From an uncultured Gammaproteobacteria bacterium (lineage in GTDB: Bacteria; Patescibacteriota; Microgenomatia; Levybacterales; GWA1-39-11): a stretch of DNA of 64,000 nucleotides. Each line of letters starts with the position of its first letter. Within the stretch, counting starts at the first letter, position 1. The translations under genes were made by a program, and so were the position numbers. Shown here piece after piece: positions 3,677 through 19,091 of the stretch. The notes beneath the pieces were generated by a model, which was not told where the DNA came from, made no database searches, and saw only the letters and a list, made by a program, of their open reading frames with translations. The stretch is from contig CAYPEN010000002.1 in the NCBI GenBank assembly GCA_964409875.1, positions 274,630 to 338,629 of the forward strand, read 5' to 3'.

Positions 3677-3705
3677 CTTGATATTACTGCAATATTTTGG
3701 TAAAA
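3677..3705 (+). promoter_or_regulatory. Sigma70-like promoter for ssrA (TTGATA - 17 nt - TAAAAT), about 10 nt upstream of the tmRNA 5' GGGG
   Basis: Hexamers and spacing were read directly from the sequence. Confidence 0.45.
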
Positions 3706-3715
3706 TATACGTCCT

Positions 3716-4104
3716 GGGGATGAATTGAATCGACAGGAACTGTACTTTAAAAACTGCAAGCCGGCAATGACTCAAAGCCGTAAAAAAGGGTCAAAAATAC
3801 ATGCTAACAATACTGTTAGCGGTATAAAGCGGTTCTTCGCGGATCGCATTCCGGATGTAAATCCGGGATTAGGTTACGCGGCATTCGCCTAATACCTGTT
3901 TGCTTCCATTCCGCCTCAAGCTCGGGGAAGCAGGCATCAACCAGCTTGAAAACTTAACGGGGCTGACCGAACCGTTTCGCAAAAGGTCTTAGCTGTTTCA
4001 TTCTGCGTTTGGGAGGTCAGAAACGGCAAAATATATCTCAAACTACGCTTGTAGATGTTTTTGAATATGGTTTTTGGACGCCGGTTCGTTACCGGCCATC
4101 TCCA
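3716..4104 (+). ncRNA. ssrA: tmRNA (SsrA)
   Basis: The 5' end GGGGATGAATTGAATCGACAGG parallels E. coli GGGGCUGAUUCUGGAUUCGACGGG. The 3' end GGACGCCGGTTCGTTACCGGC-CATCTCC-A parallels GGACGCGGGUUCAACUCCCGC-CAGCUCC-A, with the acceptor strand complementary to the 5' GGGGATG including a G3-U pair. An internal tag reading frame ends ...PGLGYAAFA followed by TAA at 3890-3892. Confidence 0.8.
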
Positions 4105-5605
4105 CACCAGTGTTTTTTGAAGTTGCTAAATTACCGATTAGCTTGACAGGATAGGCCAAACTTGCGGTTCCAAAGCCATTCTTGTAGTCATATTCAACTT
4201 TTCCGTTAAAATAAGCGTATAGAACAGCTTTCTTATCGTTCACATTTTCACTTTGCCACATATCAATAGGATTTTTTAGCAGTGAAAATAGTTTTTCCGT
4301 AGCGGTTCCAAATCTTTCGTCATTGTAGGGGTTGGATATTAACTCCATATCAATAGACCTAATCTCTTGAGAGTATTTTTCAATTTCGTTTTCATAAACC
4401 TTAATTAAATCTTCACTTGAGGCTTTAGTTATTCGTTCAAGTAGACTTGAAACTTTTGCTTCTAATTCAACTTTTCTATTTAAGTAAAGTTGTCTAATCT
4501 CCTCGTAGCTATTTTTCTTTAAGTTCCATGCTTCTGTTAACACTAATTTTGCAACGTCTAAAATCGTGTTATCTAACCTAACCTTGTATAATAATGCTTC
4601 GAATTGGTCCTCCATGCTTTTCCTTCCTATAACCTTATACTTGTACTTGCAATACTTATTGATACAGAAATAATTGGGATATCTACGACCATGACGACCA
4701 GTGTTCCAAGATGCTGTAAGAGGCTTATTGCACGAAACACAGATAATATGAGTTCGTAATGGAAAATCACTTGAATAGTCGTGTCTTGTCCATTTTTTCC
4801 CTTTTGACCTTATTCTTTGTTGGACTTTTTCGTAGGTTTCAATTGTTATAATGCCTTCATGATGACCTTTTCGCCTCTCTACACTCCATTTAGGGTACTC
4901 CACGTAGCCTGTATATAGTATTTGCCTAAGTATTCGCTGGGTACCGCTTAATGAAAGTTTTTTAGTTATACCATGCTCTTTATATTTGTTGAGAATAAAT
5001 CTCTGAACATCTTCCTGAGTGTTCAGAATACCCACGGCGTAATTTTCTAATGCAGTTTTAATGATAGAAGCGTATGGTTCGACGGGTTTTAATAGCTTCC
5101 CGTGGATAGGGTCTTTAACAGCTGAGAGGCCCAGGGGTGGAAAAAAGGCCCAGTAGCCCTTCTCTAATCGTGCTTTTTGCTTCTGAATAACCTGTCTTCT
5201 ATTGGATTTACGTTGATACTGATTGCTAACGGCTAACATTAGCTCAGCCATTTCGCTCTCATCACTTTCTTCAAAGTTGAAGTTCAAACATTCTAGTCTT
5301 ACCCCTCTAGAGGAAAACTCCGCCCTAAGTTGGATATGAACTTTAACGTCTCTTGCAAACCGTGATAAATCATCAAATATTATTACGTATTCTTCTAATG
5401 TATGGTTATCGATATATTGGATAAGTTGCTTCATGGCAGGCCTTTCAAATAAACCACCGCTTATACCGTCATCAGGAAATACTGCTTCTACGGGATAACC
5501 TTTTTGGACTGCATGAACCCTGCATCTTTGCTCTTGGGAGCTCAAACCATTACCTTCCTTAACCTGCCTCTGACTAGAAACCCTACAATAGATAAGTGCC
5601 TTCAT
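4043..5605 (-). CDS. Large serine recombinase (serine integrase type)
   Basis: N-terminal resolvase catalytic domain (LIYCRVSSQRQ with the Ser nucleophile), a recombinase domain, a Cys-rich zinc ribbon (ICVSCNKPL...CINKYCKYK) and a C-terminal coiled coil. The last roughly 20 codons overlap the tmRNA T-arm and acceptor. Confidence 0.9.
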   Translation of the reverse strand: MKALIYCRVSSQRQVKEGNGLSSQEQRCRVHAVQKGYPVEAVFPDDGISGGLFERPAMKQLIQYIDNHTLEEYVIIFDDLSRFARDVKVHIQLRAEFSSRGVRLECLNFNFEESDESEMAELMLAVSNQYQRKSNRRQVIQKQKARLEKGYWAFFPPLGLSAVKDPIHGKLLKPVEPYASIIKTALENYAVGILNTQEDVQRFILNKYKEHGITKKLSLSGTQRILRQILYTGYVEYPKWSVERRKGHHEGIITIETYEKVQQRIRSKGKKWTRHDYSSDFPLRTHIICVSCNKPLTASWNTGRHGRRYPNYFCINKYCKYKYKVIGRKSMEDQFEALLYKVRLDNTILDVAKLVLTEAWNLKKNSYEEIRQLYLNRKVELEAKVSSLLERITKASSEDLIKVYENEIEKYSQEIRSIDMELISNPYNDERFGTATEKLFSLLKNPIDMWQSENVNDKKAVLYAYFNGKVEYDYKNGFGTASLAYPVKLIGNLATSKNTGVEMAGNEPASKNHIQKHLQA

Positions 5606-5773
5606 GTATTTTGTTTATGTACCTCTGAGTCAATTATATTATTACAAAGCAACCGAAGAGAAAAAAGAAGGTTTTCAATGTCAGTATCAGGCATTTTTTC
5701 TGCCCTGGTACAGAGCGCTTTTCTGACTTCTTGTACAGTGAGTCGTTTTGCGTTACTTTTTTCAGCCACCATA
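5602..5773 (-). CDS. Small HTH protein, candidate excisionase/recombination directionality factor (56 aa, absent from the ORF track)
   Basis: Read on the minus strand as MVAEKSNAKRLTVQEVRKALCTRAEKMPDTDIENLLFSLRLLCNNIIDSEVHKQNT. Its stop TGA overlaps the recombinase ATG (ATGA coupling). The segment LTVQEVRKAL looks like the first HTH helix of Xis/MerR-like proteins. Confidence 0.4.
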
Positions 5774-6038
5774 AACTAGGTACTGAAGTAACGCCGCGTC
5801 AAGTTTGGCTTATTCCTTGTGGAATCCGATACTTACTTACAGGAGTATATTAATATATCTAACCTCAAATATCAAGCCTGTGATTGTTAAAACGTGCCGT
5901 TTTTGAATAAACTTTAATCTTACTTTTTGTAAGAATTGTTAATATTTCTTGAGGCTAATGATTATGTTTATAGTGAGATGTGGTTTAATCTTCAGTATGA
6001 TTACCTCAAAGTAGGAACCCTGGCTACCCCCAAATCGT

Positions 6039-7070
6039 TTACGCAAGGGTCAATAGAAGTTGAATCAATACGAGGAAACAAGCGATAAAAACGACTAGCC
6101 ATAAATCAGCCTGAAAGACTTCTTTTCTTTTAATGCTATTAACAAAACTCCAAATACTTGAGGCCATAAGAATTAGACCCAATAGCACTAAAACCACAAA
6201 TAATATAATGCTCCACATGTGGGAAAATACAACTTTTTTTACACTGAAATCTTGCTGAGAGTTTTCCTCTACCTTTTTTGAGGCTGCAATTAATTGAATT
6301 GCTTGCTGATTTGAATTGTTTAATAACGATGAAAGTCTACTATCGTTTGGTCGCTCTTTTGCAGCTTCTTTATACCATTCGGTATCAGTTGACGTTTTGC
6401 CTGCATAAATTCTAGCCCGAATCATCTGGTCATTTAATTGGTTTCTGTATTCTGGAAAGGCGTTCATAAAAGCGTTATTTCTTAGCGAGAGTAGAATAGC
6501 TTCTGATTGCCGAGATATATTCAATTGTTTTTGATGCATGTCTATTACATCTTGGAATAACCTATTGTTTTTAATGATTGAAGTGTCAATTCTATCCTTT
6601 AAGGCATCAATTGTTTTCTCGTTACTTCCTAACTTCTCAAAATTCTTAAGAAATAATTTCGATAAGTCTGACTGAGATAAGATACTTTGGTTAATAACAA
6701 AGACAATAACAACATAAAGCACACTTACGAATAGTGTCAATAATTTAAGTAACTTTAAGATAAAAGTGCTTTCTTTTTTAGCTGGTTGTTCTATTAATTG
6801 CTGTTCCAAATACACGATGTACACTATGAAGGAAATTAGAGGTACTATAATTGCAAAGATTTGCCATAAACGTGAGTGCTTTGATGGGTGTTTTTTTAGA
6901 GAATAAGTAATTGCAAACCAACTTAAACCCCCCGCTAATATCGAAGCTAAAATTTCATTTTTAATAATACAAACAGACGCTATTATTAAAATTAGCCATA
7001 TAATACGGCCGCTTCTCTTATTTATAAATTGTTCAAATAACTTCATATACGTTAACGAGATATTTCTCAA
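6039..7070 (-). CDS. Hypothetical polytopic membrane protein (island cargo)
   Basis: About 4 N-terminal and 2 C-terminal hydrophobic helices flank a coiled-coil-rich soluble middle domain. No known motif was recognised. Confidence 0.5.
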   Translation of the reverse strand: MRNISLTYMKLFEQFINKRSGRIIWLILIIASVCIIKNEILASILAGGLSWFAITYSLKKHPSKHSRLWQIFAIIVPLISFIVYIVYLEQQLIEQPAKKESTFILKLLKLLTLFVSVLYVVIVFVINQSILSQSDLSKLFLKNFEKLGSNEKTIDALKDRIDTSIIKNNRLFQDVIDMHQKQLNISRQSEAILLSLRNNAFMNAFPEYRNQLNDQMIRARIYAGKTSTDTEWYKEAAKERPNDSRLSSLLNNSNQQAIQLIAASKKVEENSQQDFSVKKVVFSHMWSIILFVVLVLLGLILMASSIWSFVNSIKRKEVFQADLWLVVFIACFLVLIQLLLTLA

Positions 7071-7245
7071 TAATACTTCCAGCCTAGATCAAACGCAAGG
7101 CTATGAGTCCAAATAAATGCTCTTTTAGGCTAGTGGATTGAGCACAATTGGCTTTCAATAATTACCGTATATTACCACCCATAAATACATGTACGAACAC
7201 CAAATTTTTTCAGGTATAATCTAGCAGTCAGAATATAGAAATTCT

Positions 7246-8076
7246 ATGCATAAAACAACACAAAAACGAGTTGATGAGTTGCTTAAAAAGATAAATAGCC
7301 AGCCACCTTCACCAGTCATTACAGGAATATACAAATATCAAGAGGAACACATTACATGGCTAACAAAAAATTACTGGGGATTCACAAAATATTTTGAGGA
7401 AAGTTATGATTTTTTTGTTAATTTAGTAAGTTCGGTTAACTTTATCAATAAAGACAAGTGGAAATGGAATTTGAAATTACCTTATATTTATCTTGGAAAT
7501 TCAACTTATCCATTGTTTAAGTCGTTCACCTTATTGTCCGAAGGATTTTATGATGAGTCGCTTGCACTTTCAAGAGTATCTTATGAGCTCTTAATTAAAT
7601 CGCTGTTTTGCATTCTACATCCAGATGATGCATTTGCAACTTACCAAAAGCCAGAAAAAGGGAAACTAGTATATAACTTAACAAATTTTGTTAAGGATGA
7701 TCTGAAAGTCGATTGGGAATTTCTTTATCGTTTATCATCAGCATCATCTCATGGAAAGCTATATTTTACTAAAATTATAAGTGATAGTAGGGAAAAAGGT
7801 AAACATCAAAACATAGGGTTACAACTAAGGCTTGATGAAAAATCAGCTCAAATTAATATGAACTATCTAACTTTCTTGATTTGGACTCATATTTATTTAT
7901 TCACTGTAATATTTGATGACATTGTTCCTACTAGAAAAATAAATAGTGCTGTTAAAAAAGAGGCGAATGACTACATTAAAATACTAGGGAATATTGTTAA
8001 AGGAACTCCAAATAGTTTTTCTGGAGTCGGAATCGATTTTGAAAGGATTATCAAGAAAGTTAAAGTACAAAAATGA
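7246..8076 (+). CDS. Hypothetical protein (island cargo)
   Basis: 276-aa ORF in AT-rich DNA, divergent from the membrane protein gene. No recognisable motif. Confidence 0.45.
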   Translation: MHKTTQKRVDELLKKINSQPPSPVITGIYKYQEEHITWLTKNYWGFTKYFEESYDFFVNLVSSVNFINKDKWKWNLKLPYIYLGNSTYPLFKSFTLLSEGFYDESLALSRVSYELLIKSLFCILHPDDAFATYQKPEKGKLVYNLTNFVKDDLKVDWEFLYRLSSASSHGKLYFTKIISDSREKGKHQNIGLQLRLDEKSAQINMNYLTFLIWTHIYLFTVIFDDIVPTRKINSAVKKEANDYIKILGNIVKGTPNSFSGVGIDFERIIKKVKVQK

Positions 8077-8158
8077 ACCGTTGCATCAAATCCGTTCCAA
8101 TAGTATCTTTCTATAAAGTCTTGATAAAAGTGAACGCGATGTTAAAAAGTCTTTTTAA

Positions 8159-8578
8159 TTATGCTGGAATTGAAAATGAGATGGAATCTTTTTTTATCAA
8201 CTGAGACAATAATTCTGCTTTTAACACTTCCGATAATAAAATAGCATCTTCTTTGTGCCTATTCTTCAAATAAATTGTATTATCCTTATTGTTAAACAGA
8301 TCTTTGAATCTTTTAAACTTAACATCGTGCGTCGTTAAATTGGTCTTATAATACTCGATGAATAACCCTCCCAGGTTTGAATCTTTATCTATATACATTG
8401 AGAATTCGTTGTTTAATGAAAATAAAGAAAATTCAGGGCTAATTTGTTTGGGCGAAAGACTGAGAGAATCCAAGTCAGCATCATAAGCAAAGTGCCAATT
8501 TTTATTTGTAGCAATAGTTTCTATTTCTGCTATCTGTGATTCTAATTTTTTTGTATTTACTTTTATGGACGTTTGCAT
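8159..8578 (-). CDS. Putative DUF2283-like antitoxin partner
   Basis: HFAYDADLDSLSLS and MYIDKDSNLGGLFIEYY resemble the DUF2283 pattern YDxEaDaLyI...lDlDedGrlvGIEi. It sits immediately downstream of, and overlapping, the DUF4258-like gene. Confidence 0.35.
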   Translation of the reverse strand: MQTSIKVNTKKLESQIAEIETIATNKNWHFAYDADLDSLSLSPKQISPEFSLFSLNNEFSMYIDKDSNLGGLFIEYYKTNLTTHDVKFKRFKDLFNNKDNTIYLKNRHKEDAILLSEVLKAELLSQLIKKDSISFSIPA

Positions 8579-8913
8579 GGTTCTTTAAAATACTTCTCTT
8601 CCTTAATGTTTGTAGGTCTAAAACCCGTGATTATGATATATTTGTCTTTCGTTTTTTGTACTACTACTTTAGTGTATCTCTTTATTCCTTCAATCTCAAA
8701 TTCGTAATAATAGTAACAAAATCTTTGACGGTTATCGTAGGCAGGATAAATGCAGAGCGGGTTGATTATAGCACTTTTCATCCGATCAAGAAAATTCGTT
8801 ATCAATAGTTCGGGATGAATACCCTTGTGTTTATCGTAGTTTTCTTTCGTAAATATATATCTTTTTCCATCGGAATCCTTAAAATCTAAGATAAGTTCAT
8901 CATCATTAATCAT
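8563..8913 (-). CDS. Putative DUF4258-like (RelE-fold) toxin
   Basis: The C-terminal YIIITGFRP resembles the DUF4258 signature (vITvYrP). It overlaps the downstream gene by 16 nt, giving a bicistronic pair. Confidence 0.4.
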   Translation of the reverse strand: MINDDELILDFKDSDGKRYIFTKENYDKHKGIHPELLITNFLDRMKSAIINPLCIYPAYDNRQRFCYYYYEFEIEGIKRYTKVVVQKTKDKYIIITGFRPTNIKEEKYFKEPCKRP

Positions 8914-9050
8914 TTTCCGAGTATATTCCCTCCATTTATTAGTGTCAAATTATATAATGTTTCAAACTCTCTCATGTGTATACTTCTCCTCATTTTTGCA
9001 CGTTATTTCAGGCGTAAATATTCTGATAGCTTCTGGTGATATAATCGTGA

Positions 9051-9683
9051 ATGTGGTTCCAACTTTCTGTAGAGATGTCCACACGTCTTAGATGTAACGG
9101 TAATTTACATTACCTATCTCCAAACAATATGCGTGGTGAAAGAGAGAAGACTCCAGATGTTGATACGGTCCTTGTAGAGGATACCGACCTGTTTTTTAAC
9201 CTTCTAACATTAGCTGATGATTTAGGAGTCGGCTTTAATCACCTAGCTCAAAACTTTATAAATGCAGCCTTATTAGTTAGAGAAATACATGCAGCAGAAA
9301 AGGAGTCTGTTGTGAAACGGACAAGTGACGGACTAACTGAAATTGACCCTTACGAATTATTGGTTCAAGCGATAACAAAACCAATTATTGATAACAAAAT
9401 AAAATATCGCAAAGATTACCAATTGGGGCCATTAACTTTCAGTCCGCCTATATATTTGCATAAGGGTGCAAAGATAATATCGCAAGCCAACTCTTTGGGG
9501 TCACAAAACCATTTGCAAGAATTAAGCTTAGAATTGGGCGTAGGGGTCGATTCCGTAATAGGAGGAATGTTGCATTGGGGATATGAACAGGCAAGAGAAG
9601 AGTTGGGTGGTGTATCAAGCTTAATGATAAAAAGAGATGAGACAAATAATATTATTCTTACCTTAATTCCAATTACTAAATAA
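9051..9683 (+). CDS. Hypothetical protein (island cargo; the true start may be the internal Met at about 9129)
   Basis: ORF-track entry with no recognisable motif. It ends 2 nt before the smpB stop (convergent). Confidence 0.4.
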   Translation: MWFQLSVEMSTRLRCNGNLHYLSPNNMRGEREKTPDVDTVLVEDTDLFFNLLTLADDLGVGFNHLAQNFINAALLVREIHAAEKESVVKRTSDGLTEIDPYELLVQAITKPIIDNKIKYRKDYQLGPLTFSPPIYLHKGAKIISQANSLGSQNHLQELSLELGVGVDSVIGGMLHWGYEQAREELGGVSSLMIKRDETNNIILTLIPITK

Positions 9684-9685
9684 TT

Positions 9686-10126
9686 CTAAATGAGATTTTT
9701 GAGCTCGCGTTCGCGATCCCGCTCAATTGCCTGCTGTTTTACATCTTTTCGCCTTTCGTAGTCTTTTTTTCCTTTTGCAAGTGCAACTTCCAATTTAAAA
9801 CGCCCATGTTTTTCATAAAGGGAGAGTGGGGCAAGGGTATATTTTCCGGTTTCAAGCTTGTTTTTGAGGCTCAGAAGCTCCTTTTTATGAAGCAAAAGGC
9901 GGCGGGTTCTGTCTTCCTGGTAATTTTCTACACGCGAGAATTTATAAGGGAAAATTTTGGCATTGATAATATATGCCTGCCTGGACATTATTTTCACATA
10001 TGAGCCCGAAAGGTCCGCATGGCCAAGACGTATGGCTTTTACCTCAGACCCCAAAAGTTCGATTCCTGCCTCGAATTTTTCTTCAATTTTGAATTTTTGC
10101 GGCGCGGTTTTATTGAAAATTTTCAT
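9686..10126 (-). CDS. smpB: SsrA-binding protein SmpB
   Basis: FEAGIELLGSEVKAIRLG...RRLLLHKKEL...GKYTLAPLSLY...KLEVALAKGKK match conserved SmpB blocks. Confidence 0.9.
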   Translation of the reverse strand: MKIFNKTAPQKFKIEEKFEAGIELLGSEVKAIRLGHADLSGSYVKIMSRQAYIINAKIFPYKFSRVENYQEDRTRRLLLHKKELLSLKNKLETGKYTLAPLSLYEKHGRFKLEVALAKGKKDYERRKDVKQQAIERDRERELKNLI

Positions 10127-16117: not shown

Positions 16118-18529
16118 TTATAAATTTCCCCCAAATCCTCCGTCTTTTCCCGGCAATTTATCCTGCGGGCTGTCTCCCAGCACTTCAAATAATCGCGAAC
16201 GCTTTGCAATTTCTTGGTCGACCAAATTCCTATCTCTGCCGTATTTGAGACGGGAGAGCTCGCGGATAAGTTCTGCAACTCTCGGGTTTTCTTTTTTCTT
16301 ATCCTCTTCAATATTGCGGGTCAAATCCAGAGAAAACGGAGGTGTCGGGTCTCCTCCGACAAGCGTTTTAACATACGCATGATACCGCTCTACATTGATA
16401 AGGTCTCCTTCATTGAATGTTGGTTGGAATTCATGCTGCAGATAATTTGCGTCGGTGACTCCTACCCGAAATGAAGCAATTGTTCCGACGTTTCCAAAAA
16501 TAGCGTTTTTGACATCCTCCTCAATTTGTCCTATGAACTGGTTCGCAACCGTCAGGTTGAGCCGGTATTTCCGTGCCTCTGACAAAATCTGAGCAAAATC
16601 AGGGGTGGCAAAATTCTGGAACTCATCAACATAGAGGAAGAAATCTTTCCTGTCTTTCTGCTCCATGTCTTGCCTGCTCATAGCCGCGACCAACAGCTTT
16701 GGTACAAGAATAAGACCCAAAAAGCTTGAGTTCTCTTCCCCGATGCGGCCTTTATTCAGGGAGATAAGAAGAATTTTTTGGTTGTCCATGACCTCTCTAA
16801 AATTGAAAGCGCTTTCCGACTGGCCGATGATATTCCTCATCATCTTGTTGGTTACGAAACGTCCGAATTTACTGACAATATAGTCAAGTGTTTCTGACTT
16901 ATGAAAGTCGGACGTTTGGGCAATTTGGTCCGTCCAGTAGCGCCTGACCATTGGGTCATCAACTTTCGGCAATAATTCCTGGACGAATGACATATCCGTC
17001 AGGGCTCTTACAACCTCAACAAATGTATTCCCCTTCTCAGCCATAACAGTCAGCATCGCATTTCTGACAGAGTGCTCGAAGCGGGGTCCGATGATACCTG
17101 TTTTCTGCGGATCGTACAACTTATACATTAGGTTAATAATTGAGGACGTGACAAAGTGTTTCTGGTCTTCGGTGTCGGCTTCCAACATATTAAGCCCCAT
17201 TGGGCGTTCCGTATCGGACGGGTCAAAAAGTATGACGTCTTCTGCGCGCTGGGGGGGGACAAGAGTCAAAATGTCATCGATAAGGTCGCCATGTGGGTCA
17301 ATAACCGCAACCCCTTTACCGGCGCGAATGTCCTGCATTATCATATCCTTTAAAAATTCTGATTTTCCGACACCGGTCTTTCCGATGATATACATATGCC
17401 TTCTCCTGTCATCGTCTCCGATATACACTGATTTTACTTGTCCACGGAACAGACTTTTTCCAATATATAGTCCCTCTGTTGGAATATTTGCAGGAGCCGG
17501 GGCAGTGCGAGCAGCGAGCCAATTAATATAGGGACTTTCAACACTTTTATTGGGAAAATGGAAAACAGTTGCAAGTTCTTCGGTTGTAAGGACAGTGCCT
17601 TTGTCAAAAAGTGGAAGGTGTCTATAAATAAAATCTACCATCAACATGCTTTTGAAAAATTTAGGCTCCGCCTTGGTAAAGGAATTATAGGGAGAAGAGA
17701 ATTGGGTGAATGAGCCTTCAATATTCGAAAGATGGGCTTCCGCAGCTTCTTTTGTGGATGAGGCGACAACCACACGTATAAAAGTAAGAAAGCCTGGCTT
17801 TGTGATTTTTTGTTCAATTGCCTCCAATTCCTTCGGGTCGGTTGAGTACTTTGCCGTTTCTGGATTTGACTCCTGTTTTTTCTTGTCCGTCACAAATGTT
17901 CTTCCGGCTTTTTTCCATTCGTCTCCTGCATTGGCGATGACAAATTGGACAGCCGCTGACTCACCTTCCTGCATTTTCCCAAGGGTTGCGGTAATTGTAG
18001 ACAGGGGATCGAGCGCAAAATCTTTATAGGTTTTTATCGGTTTGAATCCTTCCTTTTTGAGTGTAAATCCGGCGAATGCGACTTTTCCTTCGTTTTCAAA
18101 AATATTATAATCATCAACTTCTTTTATCTGTGCGTCAGGATATGCTCCATTGATTTGTTTTTCGACCATGTCTTGCAGTTTTCTGGGAACACCAACATAA
18201 AACCTTATGTCTTGCGGTTTGGCAACTATCTCAAATGTAATGCTATCTCCAACCTTCGTGAAAGCAAATAGTCCTTTTGGGGCTTTAAGGGAGGCAAAAC
18301 TGGAAAAAAGTTGTTCAGCAGCATCAATCTTTATTTCGTTATCTCGCGGAAGGCTTATCTCAAGAAGTGTTGAATCAAGCGATTTTTTGTGCCGCTCTTT
18401 TGCACGCCTCCAGATGCCATAAAAATATATTGCAGCAATGCTACCTGCTGCAACCAGGCTTATAACAAGTAGCGACCCCATCCCAACCAGGAGAAGATTC
18501 AAAATTGTTTGTGTATTAATGATATTCAT
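16118..18529 (-). CDS. FtsK/HerA/VirD4(TraG/TraD)-superfamily membrane-anchored ATPase (type IV coupling-protein-like)
   Basis: N-terminal TM helix. Walker A is IIGKTGVGKSEF followed by AVIDPHGDL. Walker B with the arginine region is FLYVDEFQNFATP...ARKYRLNLTVANQ. A roughly 330-aa N-terminal extension precedes the ATPase. Confidence 0.65.
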   Translation of the reverse strand: MNIINTQTILNLLLVGMGSLLVISLVAAGSIAAIYFYGIWRRAKERHKKSLDSTLLEISLPRDNEIKIDAAEQLFSSFASLKAPKGLFAFTKVGDSITFEIVAKPQDIRFYVGVPRKLQDMVEKQINGAYPDAQIKEVDDYNIFENEGKVAFAGFTLKKEGFKPIKTYKDFALDPLSTITATLGKMQEGESAAVQFVIANAGDEWKKAGRTFVTDKKKQESNPETAKYSTDPKELEAIEQKITKPGFLTFIRVVVASSTKEAAEAHLSNIEGSFTQFSSPYNSFTKAEPKFFKSMLMVDFIYRHLPLFDKGTVLTTEELATVFHFPNKSVESPYINWLAARTAPAPANIPTEGLYIGKSLFRGQVKSVYIGDDDRRRHMYIIGKTGVGKSEFLKDMIMQDIRAGKGVAVIDPHGDLIDDILTLVPPQRAEDVILFDPSDTERPMGLNMLEADTEDQKHFVTSSIINLMYKLYDPQKTGIIGPRFEHSVRNAMLTVMAEKGNTFVEVVRALTDMSFVQELLPKVDDPMVRRYWTDQIAQTSDFHKSETLDYIVSKFGRFVTNKMMRNIIGQSESAFNFREVMDNQKILLISLNKGRIGEENSSFLGLILVPKLLVAAMSRQDMEQKDRKDFFLYVDEFQNFATPDFAQILSEARKYRLNLTVANQFIGQIEEDVKNAIFGNVGTIASFRVGVTDANYLQHEFQPTFNEGDLINVERYHAYVKTLVGGDPTPPFSLDLTRNIEEDKKKENPRVAELIRELSRLKYGRDRNLVDQEIAKRSRLFEVLGDSPQDKLPGKDGGFGGNL

Positions 18530-18750
18530 ATATTTTTTTCTTCAAATTGACTTTCATCTATCAGGCGCCCTTCTTCGTGTTGAGCCAATTCGCCTACCGT
18601 TTGTCCTTGGATAAGATGGACGGTTTCCTCAAGGCGTTTGTGGTGTTGTCCCTCATGATGTGTTGTTATTCCAACGATGTCAGTTTTGGGTATTACGGCA
18701 TCCGAAGCGTATGCCACAATTTCACGAAGCGTATCTACGGGCGCATTCAT
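18526..18750 (-). CDS. Small hypothetical protein, possibly co-transcribed with the ATPase (4-nt overlap)
   Basis: ORF-track entry, His/Glu-rich. No motif recognised. Confidence 0.3.
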   Translation of the reverse strand: MNAPVDTLREIVAYASDAVIPKTDIVGITTHHEGQHHKRLEETVHLIQGQTVGELAQHEEGRLIDESQFEEKNI

Positions 18751-18898
18751 ACGTATTTATAATACCATAGTAGCAATCTACCCACAATTTCGTACGCCTC
18801 ATAAATCCATCTCAAGACGCTTCCTTTTGAGCTTAAGTTTGATATAATGATACAACTTTGTAAGGGGCAGGTAGGGAAGCGGTATGGTGAAAATGGTT

Positions 18899-19091
18899 GG
18901 GAGGAGTCGCATGAAATCTCTTTGAGATGTTCTACGACTCTTAGATAAGAAATAAAGGAGGAGTCGCATGAGAAATCTCTTTGAGATGTTCTACGACTCT
19001 TAGATAAGAAACCAAGGAGGAGTCGCATAAGAACCTGGCATAAGACCAGAACCTTGTACGATCCTATTCGTTACACTCGGAGGAGTCGCAT
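18899..19091 (+). repeat. Array of four copies of GGAGGAGTCGCAT (the tRNA-Ser-GCT 5' end) at 58/58/63-nt spacing; the fourth copy is the start of the tRNA itself
   Basis: Copies start at about 18899, 18957, 19015 and 19079. Spacers 1 and 2 are near-identical (gaaatctctttgagatgttctacgactcttagataagaaa); spacer 3 is unrelated. Confidence 0.8.

Follow-up and report, generated by a model that had tools for sequence, protein, structure and literature searches.

Serine integrases are generally thought to avoid tRNA genes and the genes for transfer-messenger RNA (tmRNA). Islands and prophages in these genes have been described for tyrosine integrases (Williams 2002; Islander, PMC4383910). Among serine integrases, tRNA or tmRNA targets were reported for 14 of 297 (4.9%), a use that was called previously unreported and was regarded as unproven (Mageeney et al. 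2020, PMC7192596). The closest described systems are the ssrA islands of Dehalococcoides, which encode a serine recombinase of ~540 amino acids, DsiB, whose gene always overlaps ssrA at attL (McMurdie et al. 2011, PMC3146451). Here, we describe a 4,977-bp element in a 64,000-nucleotide stretch of a patescibacterial contig (the window, whose positions serve as coordinates throughout). The element encodes a large serine recombinase (LSR), which very probably inserted it at the extreme 3' end of ssrA, the tmRNA gene. Related loci and contigs carry L numbers and homologous proteins carry P numbers. A preliminary description of the window had considered an LSR in this position unusual and possibly the mark of a new family. 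DsiB is a precedent (PMC3146451), and the family is large, with 318 relatives in our scan. Dehalococcoides had stayed an isolated example; the locus in the window belongs to a large family that extends across the Patescibacteria and has relatives in Alphaproteobacteria.

The integrated element and its attachment sites

The target gene is intact. ARAGORN placed ssrA at 3716-4105 on the plus strand, with the tag peptide ANNTVSGIKRFFADRIPDVNPGLGYAAFA, and the Rfam model RF00023 matched 3716-4107 over its full length (118.8 bits, E = 2.6e-46). These calls agree with the end at about 4104 in the preliminary description, and the 5' and 3' tmRNA sequences quoted there were both found in the window. 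On the opposite strand, the open reading frame (ORF) of the LSR (4043-5605, 520 amino acids) overlaps the tmRNA 3' end by 63 nt, close to the ~60 nt that had been proposed.

To delimit the element, we compared the window with an empty version of the same site. The contig L164 (963 nt, Logan run SRR24204751) comes from a near-identical strain and was found through an ORFan gene at 9129-9683, which it carries. Its nucleotides 1 to 158 are identical to window positions 3950-4107, and nucleotides 149 to 960 match 9075-9886 at 98.9% identity. It therefore joins 4107 directly to 9085, with the junction reading ...GGCCATCTCCACAC/GTCTTAGATG..., and it is the attB of a different strain of the same species. 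It follows that the element occupies 4108-9084 and is flanked by two copies of TCCACAC. The attL copy, at 4101-4107, consists of tmRNA bases U70 to C72, the discriminator A73, and then CAC; the attR copy is at 9078-9084. The first clue to the distal boundary was L001, the closest occupied relative, with an LSR 68% identical to that of the window. Its distal end has an 11-nt repeat, ATCTCCACACC in tmRNA sense, followed by CCCGCTAGAAAGTTGGAACCACAT, and the counterpart in the window is 9051-9084, which ends in TCCACAC.

These boundaries support the earlier claim of an integrated element whose LSR sits on the ssrA 3' end, and the att core could be mapped from the element ends as had been suggested. 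However, the element is shorter than the 5.6 kb that had been proposed to reach smpB. It ends 600 bp before smpB, with the ORFan gene (9129-9683, plus strand, 184 amino acids) in between. Because this gene is retained at the empty site L164, we assign it to the host. It has no counterpart in a more distant relative, L081, and its only match in a word-index search of 5.8 billion proteins was itself. An ORF finder starts the gene at an ATG at 9051, which falls inside the LSR tail-coding segment described below and is probably not the true start. We considered and rejected a second, decayed element at 9085-9685, since this interval has no core or tail motif, its ORF lacks homologues, and it is present at L164.

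The prediction that empty sites would be found was borne out beyond this species. In L081, comF is followed by ssrA (6369-6781, plus strand) and a convergent smpB, with nothing between ssrA and smpB; smpB is 80% and comF 68% identical to the genes in the window. This locus came from a search of metagenome contigs for close relatives using comF, in which the best match was 68% identical and which yielded other empty sites as well. L084, L089, and L091 are also empty sites of relatives. Occupied and empty versions of one site, with clean junctions, thus occur in related genomes (L164; L081, L084, and L091), as is characteristic of a genomic island. None of the eight loci found through comF that show ssrA has an LSR. 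Three LSR-free loci from that search (L087, L090, and L093) have inserts of 1.5 to 2 kb, of unassigned content, between comF and the ssrA 3' end; these may be decayed elements.

Base composition follows the same boundaries. The GC content is 33.7% in the element and 32.1% in its cargo, versus 40 to 45% in the flanks and 38.8% in the whole window, so the intervening DNA is AT-richer with cargo-like genes, as first described. The drop is limited to the element. GC is 36.9% at 9085-9685 and 40.4% in the right-hand flank.

The preliminary description had also invoked the classic arrangement in which attP carries the 3' end of the target RNA gene. What is shared is the 7-bp TCCACAC alone, and the 63 nt of overlap are ssrA sequence of the host. 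Beyond this core, the window contains no further copy of the ssrA 3' end. The classic model, with attP restoring the gene, would leave such a displaced end and is thereby ruled out.

The position of the crossover could be narrowed by comparing loci. The shared block begins at U70, the T of TCCACAC, both in the window and in L027, where the target is tRNA-Ala, and it stops at C74 in L020, where it ends in CTCCAC. The crossover therefore lies within the intersection, TCCAC (U70, C71, C72, A73, and C74), which is common to the acceptor ends of tmRNA and tRNA-Ala. U70 belongs to the G3:U70 pair, an alanine identity element. The complement, GTGGA, is invariant in all 31 attR or attP sequences, and the host side varies and contains stop codons. 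Other targets end in CCCACC (tRNA-Met and tRNA-Lys) or CGCACC (tRNA-Leu), which suggests that the crossover dinucleotide may be CA or AC. The sequence shared by attB and attP is thus 7 bp in the window and 5 bp (TCCAC) across the family, which would fit the short att sites of LSRs, with their 2-bp crossovers and no requirement for extended homology. Since the crossover falls within the acceptor bases TCCAC, the mature tmRNA sequence is unchanged. The sequences give access to all four att sites: L164 supplies attB, the window supplies both attL and attR, and joining the element ends reconstructs attP, which reads ...GAGATGTCCACAC/CAGTGTTTTTTG... A dyad can be seen by eye in this attP (CAACTT...AAGTTG); it is not clear in L001.

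The recombinase gene and its detached tail

The enzyme has the features of a large serine recombinase. A resolvase-type catalytic domain with the serine nucleophile (Pfam PF00239, 9.2e-23, residues 3 to 151) is followed by a recombinase domain (PF07508, 3.5e-5, with 24.4 bits over a curated cut-off of 21.1) and by a zinc ribbon with an embedded coiled coil. The protein matches the integrases of PHROG 95 at 2e-60, and its sequence matches in the PDB are the TP901-1 integrase and TnpX. The catalytic motif YCRVSS is intact and nearly invariant among homologues; the zinc-ribbon cysteines 289, 292, 314, and 319 are intact and invariant, and PF13408 is recorded on homologues. An AlphaFold2 (AF2) model of the homologue P0099 has a mean predicted local distance difference test score (pLDDT) of 85.9 and shows the canonical LSR layout plus a C-terminal domain of ~70 residues, with ribbon strands at 289-328, long helices at 347-423, and a disordered linker at 498-507, where the residues are encoded by the att core.

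In the window, the body of the protein, comprising its catalytic, recombinase, and zinc-ribbon domains, the coiled coil, and the C-terminal domain, is encoded by the element (4108-5605, minus strand). The remainder, including the stop codon, is host DNA. By sequence, attP appears to lie inside the LSR ORF, about 23 codons before the stop, which is why the 63-nt overlap consists of host ssrA. The last 21 residues (VEMAGNEPASKNHIQKHLQA, encoded with the stop codon at 4043-4107 on the minus strand) come from the T-arm and acceptor stem of the tmRNA read in antisense and include VEMAGNEPAS. A motif VEMxGxEPxS ends all integrated-form homologues, with V501 and E502 invariant. This motif tracks tmRNA conservation and is best read as antisense tmRNA or tRNA sequence and nothing more.

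The original C terminus can be recognized at the other end of the element. The segment at 9008-9084 (minus strand), which would also form the P' arm of attP, continues the LSR reading frame over the circle junction. In the integrated form, the frame reads ...NTGV-EMAGNEPASKNHIQKHLQA and then stops; over the reconstructed junction, it reads ...NTGV-DISTESWNHIHDYITRSYQNIYA before the stop, so that the detached segment would encode V-DISTESWNHIHDYITRSYQNIYA. The predicted circle form has 524 amino acids, compared with 520 in the ssrA-tailed form. It is homologous to the distal end of L001, where the tail reads ...VEIPLESWNHIQEYIMRGYEFVYA to the stop codon, and to the contiguous C termini of P0010, P0099, and P0119. 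These tails share the motif SWNxIxDYIxKWY. We searched the region upstream of the LSR in 80 related loci for this motif, requiring it within 45 nt after GTGGA or GGTGG. The LSR strand gave 32 matches and the control strand a single one. Of the 32, 27 proved on inspection to be genuine tail sites; they occur in 25 loci, 3.4 to 10.6 kb upstream of the LSR C-terminal end. The window has a single occurrence, at 9082 on the minus strand.

Uninterrupted forms of the gene also exist. The tail is contiguous with the body in 6 of 120 homologues (P0010, P0065, P0099, P0106, P0115, and P0119). The contigs of P0010 (L161; 4,224 bp, 55-nt terminal overlap) and P0099 (L162; 4,330 bp, 127-nt terminal overlap) each carry an uninterrupted LSR gene and no tmRNA. 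Besides the LSR, they contain little beyond a conserved upstream gene of ~55 amino acids and between two and four further ORFs of small to medium size, with an HTH repressor-like gene on the contig of P0010. We read both as circular assemblies of ~4.2 kb. A tRNA-Ser(UGA) is predicted at 3916-4006 of L161 by ARAGORN. Two points weigh against our account of the locus. A tandem array would leave the same terminal overlap as a circle, and no circular or attP form of the window's own element was found. The preliminary description had suggested a search for excised circular forms in reads; contigs with the signature of circles came from relatives only (L161 and L162).

Relatives, targets, and cargo

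To see how general this arrangement is, we scanned one genome per GTDB species and analyzed the top 80 genome loci, calling RNA genes with ARAGORN or Rfam and assigning the remaining categories by sequence inspection. Hundreds of LSR homologues are full length at 45 to 68% identity, mostly from Patescibacteria. The 3' end of an RNA gene overlaps the LSR C terminus in 69 of the 80 loci, so the overlap of ssrA and LSR in the window is not a matter of chance. The gene is a tmRNA in 48 loci and a tRNA in 21 (17 Ala, 2 Met, 1 Lys, and 1 Leu). Of the rest, three loci have no called RNA gene and a tmRNA-like 3' end visible before the contig end (L012, L031, and L045), four lie on contigs that end at or just past the LSR (L006, L025, L038, and L063), and four are exceptions (L034, L036, L066, and L072). 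Across the family, the LSR is consistently directed at an acceptor end of the alanine type, whether in a tmRNA or in a tRNA gene. No Dehalococcoides locus was among the top 80.

The tRNA-Ala cases come mainly from Rhodobacterales and other Alphaproteobacteria, with some from Paceibacteria and Gracilibacteria. Cultured Alphaproteobacteria such as Rhodovulum, Roseovarius, and Thioclava have full-length relatives of ~40% identity that overlap tRNA-Ala(GGC/CGC) at its 3' end; the alphaproteobacterial loci are L039, L040, L051, L055, L056, L059, L060, L073 to L076, L079, and L080. No distal tail motif was found within the available 10-kb flank of these loci, and the alphaproteobacterial elements are therefore probably larger. 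Two distal tail motifs are present in each of L018 (4501 and 5076) and L062 (4164 and 5137), and in L066 the LSR is ~7 kb from a tmRNA at 18529-18937, with another block between them. Such loci point to tandem arrays, or to leftovers of elements that entered one site in succession.

Within the element of the window, a 56-amino-acid gene (5602-5772, minus strand) overlaps the LSR start and has a Pfam HTH_68 match under the cut-off (E = 0.015). Homologues lie directly upstream of the LSR in L001, L002, L005, L006, L007, L010, L014, and L021, and also on L161 to L163. This conserved partner is a candidate regulator or directionality factor. The remaining genes appear to be cargo. The product of 6039-7070 (minus strand, 343 amino acids) matches no family; its hydrophobic stretches, read by eye rather than with a predictor, suggest a membrane protein. 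The gene at 7246-8076 (plus strand, 276 amino acids) has a weak DUF5677 match under the Pfam cut-off. Two small overlapping genes occupy 8159-8913 on the minus strand, of which 8563-8913 has a weak, sub-threshold Pfam match to PBECR2 nuclease-like proteins and 8159-8578 has no match; they are possibly a toxin/immunity pair. A promoter-like site (11/12) adjoins them at 8948-8920 on the minus strand. L001 has a wholly different cargo, in which a ParE/YoeB-like toxin and a DUF3467 protein are encoded.

Searches of the cargo against PADLOC, PHROGs, and Pfam gave no defence system and no phage function, only the sub-threshold DUF5677 and PBECR2 matches. No virion structural, packaging, or lysis genes were found, and the integrase was the only PHROG match, which leaves the element without the gene set of a temperate phage. 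The scanned element ORFs have no second resolvase, ParB, or Mom domain in Pfam or PHROGs, and ARAGORN found no tRNA inside the element. In IMG/VR, the LSR family is essentially absent from viral contigs (best relative, 35% identical), and for this reason we class the element as integrative rather than as a prophage. Judged by its gene content, it is apparently a minimal integrative element, neither a recognizable phage nor a conjugative element.

A structured RNA accompanies many of the relatives. LOOT RNA (Rfam RF03000, with no function in the Rfam output) has gathering-score matches in 12 of 27 LSR loci scanned with Rfam, usually 0.5 to 3 kb upstream of the LSR gene: L002 (8417-8530), L004 (465-572), L011 (8660-8776), L026 (9407-9521), L036 (7460-7572), L042 (9161-9282), L045 (2583-2700), L052 (4723-4844), L063 (8327-8443), L064 (6291-6405), L066 (8811-8921 and 16332-16452), and L078 (7282-7401). 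It lies inside the mapped element in L011, L063, and L064. None of six LSR-free loci scanned has it, nor does the window's element, even at E ≤ 1. LOOT RNA may be a cargo or maintenance RNA of LSR elements.

The host genes around the element have their own history. A promoter-like site precedes ssrA at 3678-3706 on the plus strand (TTGATA-17-TAAAAT with an extended TG), and the spacer in front of ssrA is homologous to that in L001 and L081. smpB (9686-10126, minus strand; Pfam SmpB, 5e-44) is convergent with ssrA. Other Levybacteria have comF on the plus strand and then ssrA and smpB in tandem on the minus strand, with smpB leading into ssrA as that strand is read, and the elements of L001 to L003 and L021 sit between comF and the ssrA 3' end. 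Thus, ssrA is inverted in the window and in L081 relative to other Levybacteria, which makes it convergent with smpB. Because the empty site L081 already has this orientation, the inversion is older than the integration, and the element is not its cause. On the same grounds, we rejected the idea that ssrA and the element were inverted as one block relative to L001 to L003 and L021. In L081 (6369-6790), the smpB stop codon overlaps the final tmRNA bases. An AdoCbl-II riboswitch match lies between homologues of window ORFs 41-862 and 1192-1746 in L081 (3818-3897) and in L005 (15782-15850); the window has no match at the Rfam gathering score.

Possible mechanism and comparison with known systems

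The account that best fits these observations, and which we hold with high confidence, is an LSR-driven insertion of a 4,977-bp element right where the tmRNA gene ends, with attP inside the LSR ORF. Crossover within TCCAC would insert the element at the last tmRNA bases and split the LSR gene, leaving the conserved tail at the far end (9008-9084) and fusing the body to antisense ssrA, which would supply a 21-amino-acid substitute tail and a stop codon. Excision would rejoin the full-length gene on a small circle. One could instead suppose that the element spans the whole stretch of ~5.6 kb from ssrA to smpB and that the site at 9078-9084 is internal, since everything at 4108-9685 is extra relative to L081, where ssrA abuts smpB. 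We find this very unlikely: the empty site in the same species keeps 9085-9886 and with it the ORFan gene, neither a core nor a tail motif lies beside smpB, and the GC content of 9085-9685 is intermediate between that of the element and that of the right flank. It is similarly improbable that the LSR is a resident or domesticated host gene, or an immobile relic, that overlaps ssrA through tight packing in a small genome. The frequency of LSR genes beside ssrA in Patescibacteria would fit such an origin, as would the failure to identify replication or transfer genes in the element, which also counts against mobility as we propose it. However, empty and occupied sites coexist within the species and among relatives, the cargo differs completely between the window and L001, the comF-found loci lack the LSR, contigs with the signature of circular assembly exist, and the GC drop is restricted to the element. 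A chimeric join of element and ssrA during assembly seems the least credible of these possibilities, and we give it hardly any weight. The window is probably metagenome-assembled, judging from the sources listed for the recombinase, and no other contig is on record for exactly this LSR protein; on the other hand, junctions built in this way are found in 69 independent assemblies, and the core and the in-frame tail are exactly where the family pattern predicts them.

The role of the detached tail is less clear. The distal sequence might be conserved solely as a DNA site in the P' arm, in which case the tail would have no function as a peptide and its exchange would be inconsequential; we regard this as rather unlikely, with a real chance of being correct. 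The TGGAAC that encodes W-N is almost invariant, including third positions (the Asn third position is the same in 30 of 31 sequences), and given this fixation in the DNA itself, a binding site may account for part of the constraint. The tail of the P0099 model is a helix at low confidence only (pLDDT 41 to 55), which likewise speaks against a peptide function, and McMurdie et al. considered it unlikely that the stretch of dsiB in the overlap has a function (PMC3146451). Yet over the 16 codons that start at W, in 31 sequences, variation is greatest at the third position and smallest at the second (mean entropy of 1.09, 0.87, and 1.45 at positions 1, 2, and 3). At hydrophobic positions, the second-position T is invariant while the first and third vary (I/L/V); at aromatic positions, Y, W, and F interchange. 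The frame is open for 20 to 35 codons in all 31 sequences. Moreover, the conserved stretch extends for 60 bp or more from the core, compared with the usual LSR half-site of ~20 to 25 bp. The codon-position pattern indicates probable selection on the peptide. The AF2 model is compatible with a tethered amphipathic helix, and since the tail is a low-confidence helix on a confident body, the model is silent on mechanism.

If the peptide matters, the tail exchange could act as a built-in switch of state or directionality, a speculative proposal whose strong version we consider unlikely. The circle would encode a full-length integrase whose conserved amphipathic tail is required for attP × attB recombination, and the ssrA-tailed isoform of the integrated form would be excision-prone, inactive, or unstable, with its mRNA pairing with tmRNA. 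Under this proposal, the two isoforms would differ in activity or stability; for example, the circle form could be integration-competent and the prophage form altered or silenced. The integrase mRNA, which would run antisense into the abundant tmRNA, may be down-regulated, and the 56-amino-acid partner may help control directionality. Directionality would then be set partly by the location of the gene and not by a separate directionality factor alone. In this proposal, the family would also provide naturally occurring LSRs whose common target, the 5-bp alanine-acceptor end TCCAC, is nearly universal and is found in the tmRNA and tRNA-Ala genes of different phyla. Compact natural elements of ~4 to 5 kb with the crossover mapped to TCCAC should be useful both for studying mobile DNA in the candidate phyla radiation and for integrase engineering.

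Several known systems share parts of this design. Like tyrosine-integrase islands, the element has the 3' end of ssrA or a tRNA gene as its target, an integrase gene beside the att site, an intact target gene, and a direct repeat at the far end. In those islands, however, the recombinase is unrelated, attP restores tens of target bases, and a displaced fragment is left, whereas here 5 to 7 bp are shared and there is no fragment. The small serine recombinases of the phiRSM type have been named as site-specific integrases (PMC7192596). With a tRNA-type gene 3' end as attB, the LSR element is similar in target; the phiRSM-type enzymes, though, are small and resolvase-like, lack the recombinase, zinc-ribbon, and coiled-coil domains, and belong to filamentous phages, and the enzyme in the window is large. 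These phiRSM-type enzymes target tRNA genes.

Integration that alters a coding sequence also has parallels. In archaeal tyrosine integrases of the SSV1 type, the gene is split near the middle by integration and the provirus copy is non-functional. As there, attP in our element is inside the integrase ORF, the target is of the tRNA type, and the intact gene is found on the circle only; unlike there, the exchange is confined to the last ~23 codons and leaves the catalytic and DNA-binding domains whole. In mycobacteriophages such as BPs, which use a tyrosine integrase, immunity is reportedly integration dependent, with the repressor losing a degradation tag, as is said to have been described by Broussard and colleagues in 2013. 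There too, attP is said to lie inside a coding sequence, so that integration changes the C terminus of a protein. The protein affected in BPs is reportedly the repressor, with a functional effect shown; for the LSR of the window, an effect would be inferred.

The Dehalococcoides islands are the nearest match. In both systems, the target is the ssrA 3' end, an LSR of ~520 to 540 amino acids adjoins attL on the opposite strand, the LSR ORF crosses attL into ssrA so that its stop codon lies outside the island (here with the 63-nt overlap), and tandem arrays occur (here indicated by the paired tail motifs of L018 and L062). McMurdie et al. speculated that dsiB is fully functional only on the circle (PMC3146451). 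A conserved integrase C terminus that is present only on the excised form makes this 2011 speculation, that the integration state changes the integrase, directly testable. The differences are also substantial. In the Dehalococcoides islands, the direct repeat measures 20 bp and the insertion point was inferred to be in the T-loop; here, the core is 7 bp with the crossover in TCCAC, and the window has no longer repeat, that is, no longer copy of the ssrA end. Their six-gene integration module (DsiB, the small serine recombinase DsiA, a RecF-like protein, ParB, Mom, and a tRNA-Gly-like gene) was not found here, and they are larger and carry rdhA cargo. Compared by description rather than by sequence, DsiB (for example ACZ62382, DhcVS_1282) has no reported conserved detached tail, and its overlapping part was described as divergent. 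The attR flank motif of Dehalococcoides, TTCAGRSMGMRKCCA, reads TGG... on the dsiB strand. We found no paper linking Patescibacteria, a serine recombinase, and tmRNA. The architecture is thus already known from Dehalococcoides; what differs here is the short core with its crossover in TCCAC, the lack of a DsiA/ParB/Mom module, the conserved detached tail, the breadth across Patescibacteria, and the use of tRNA-Ala targets in other phyla.

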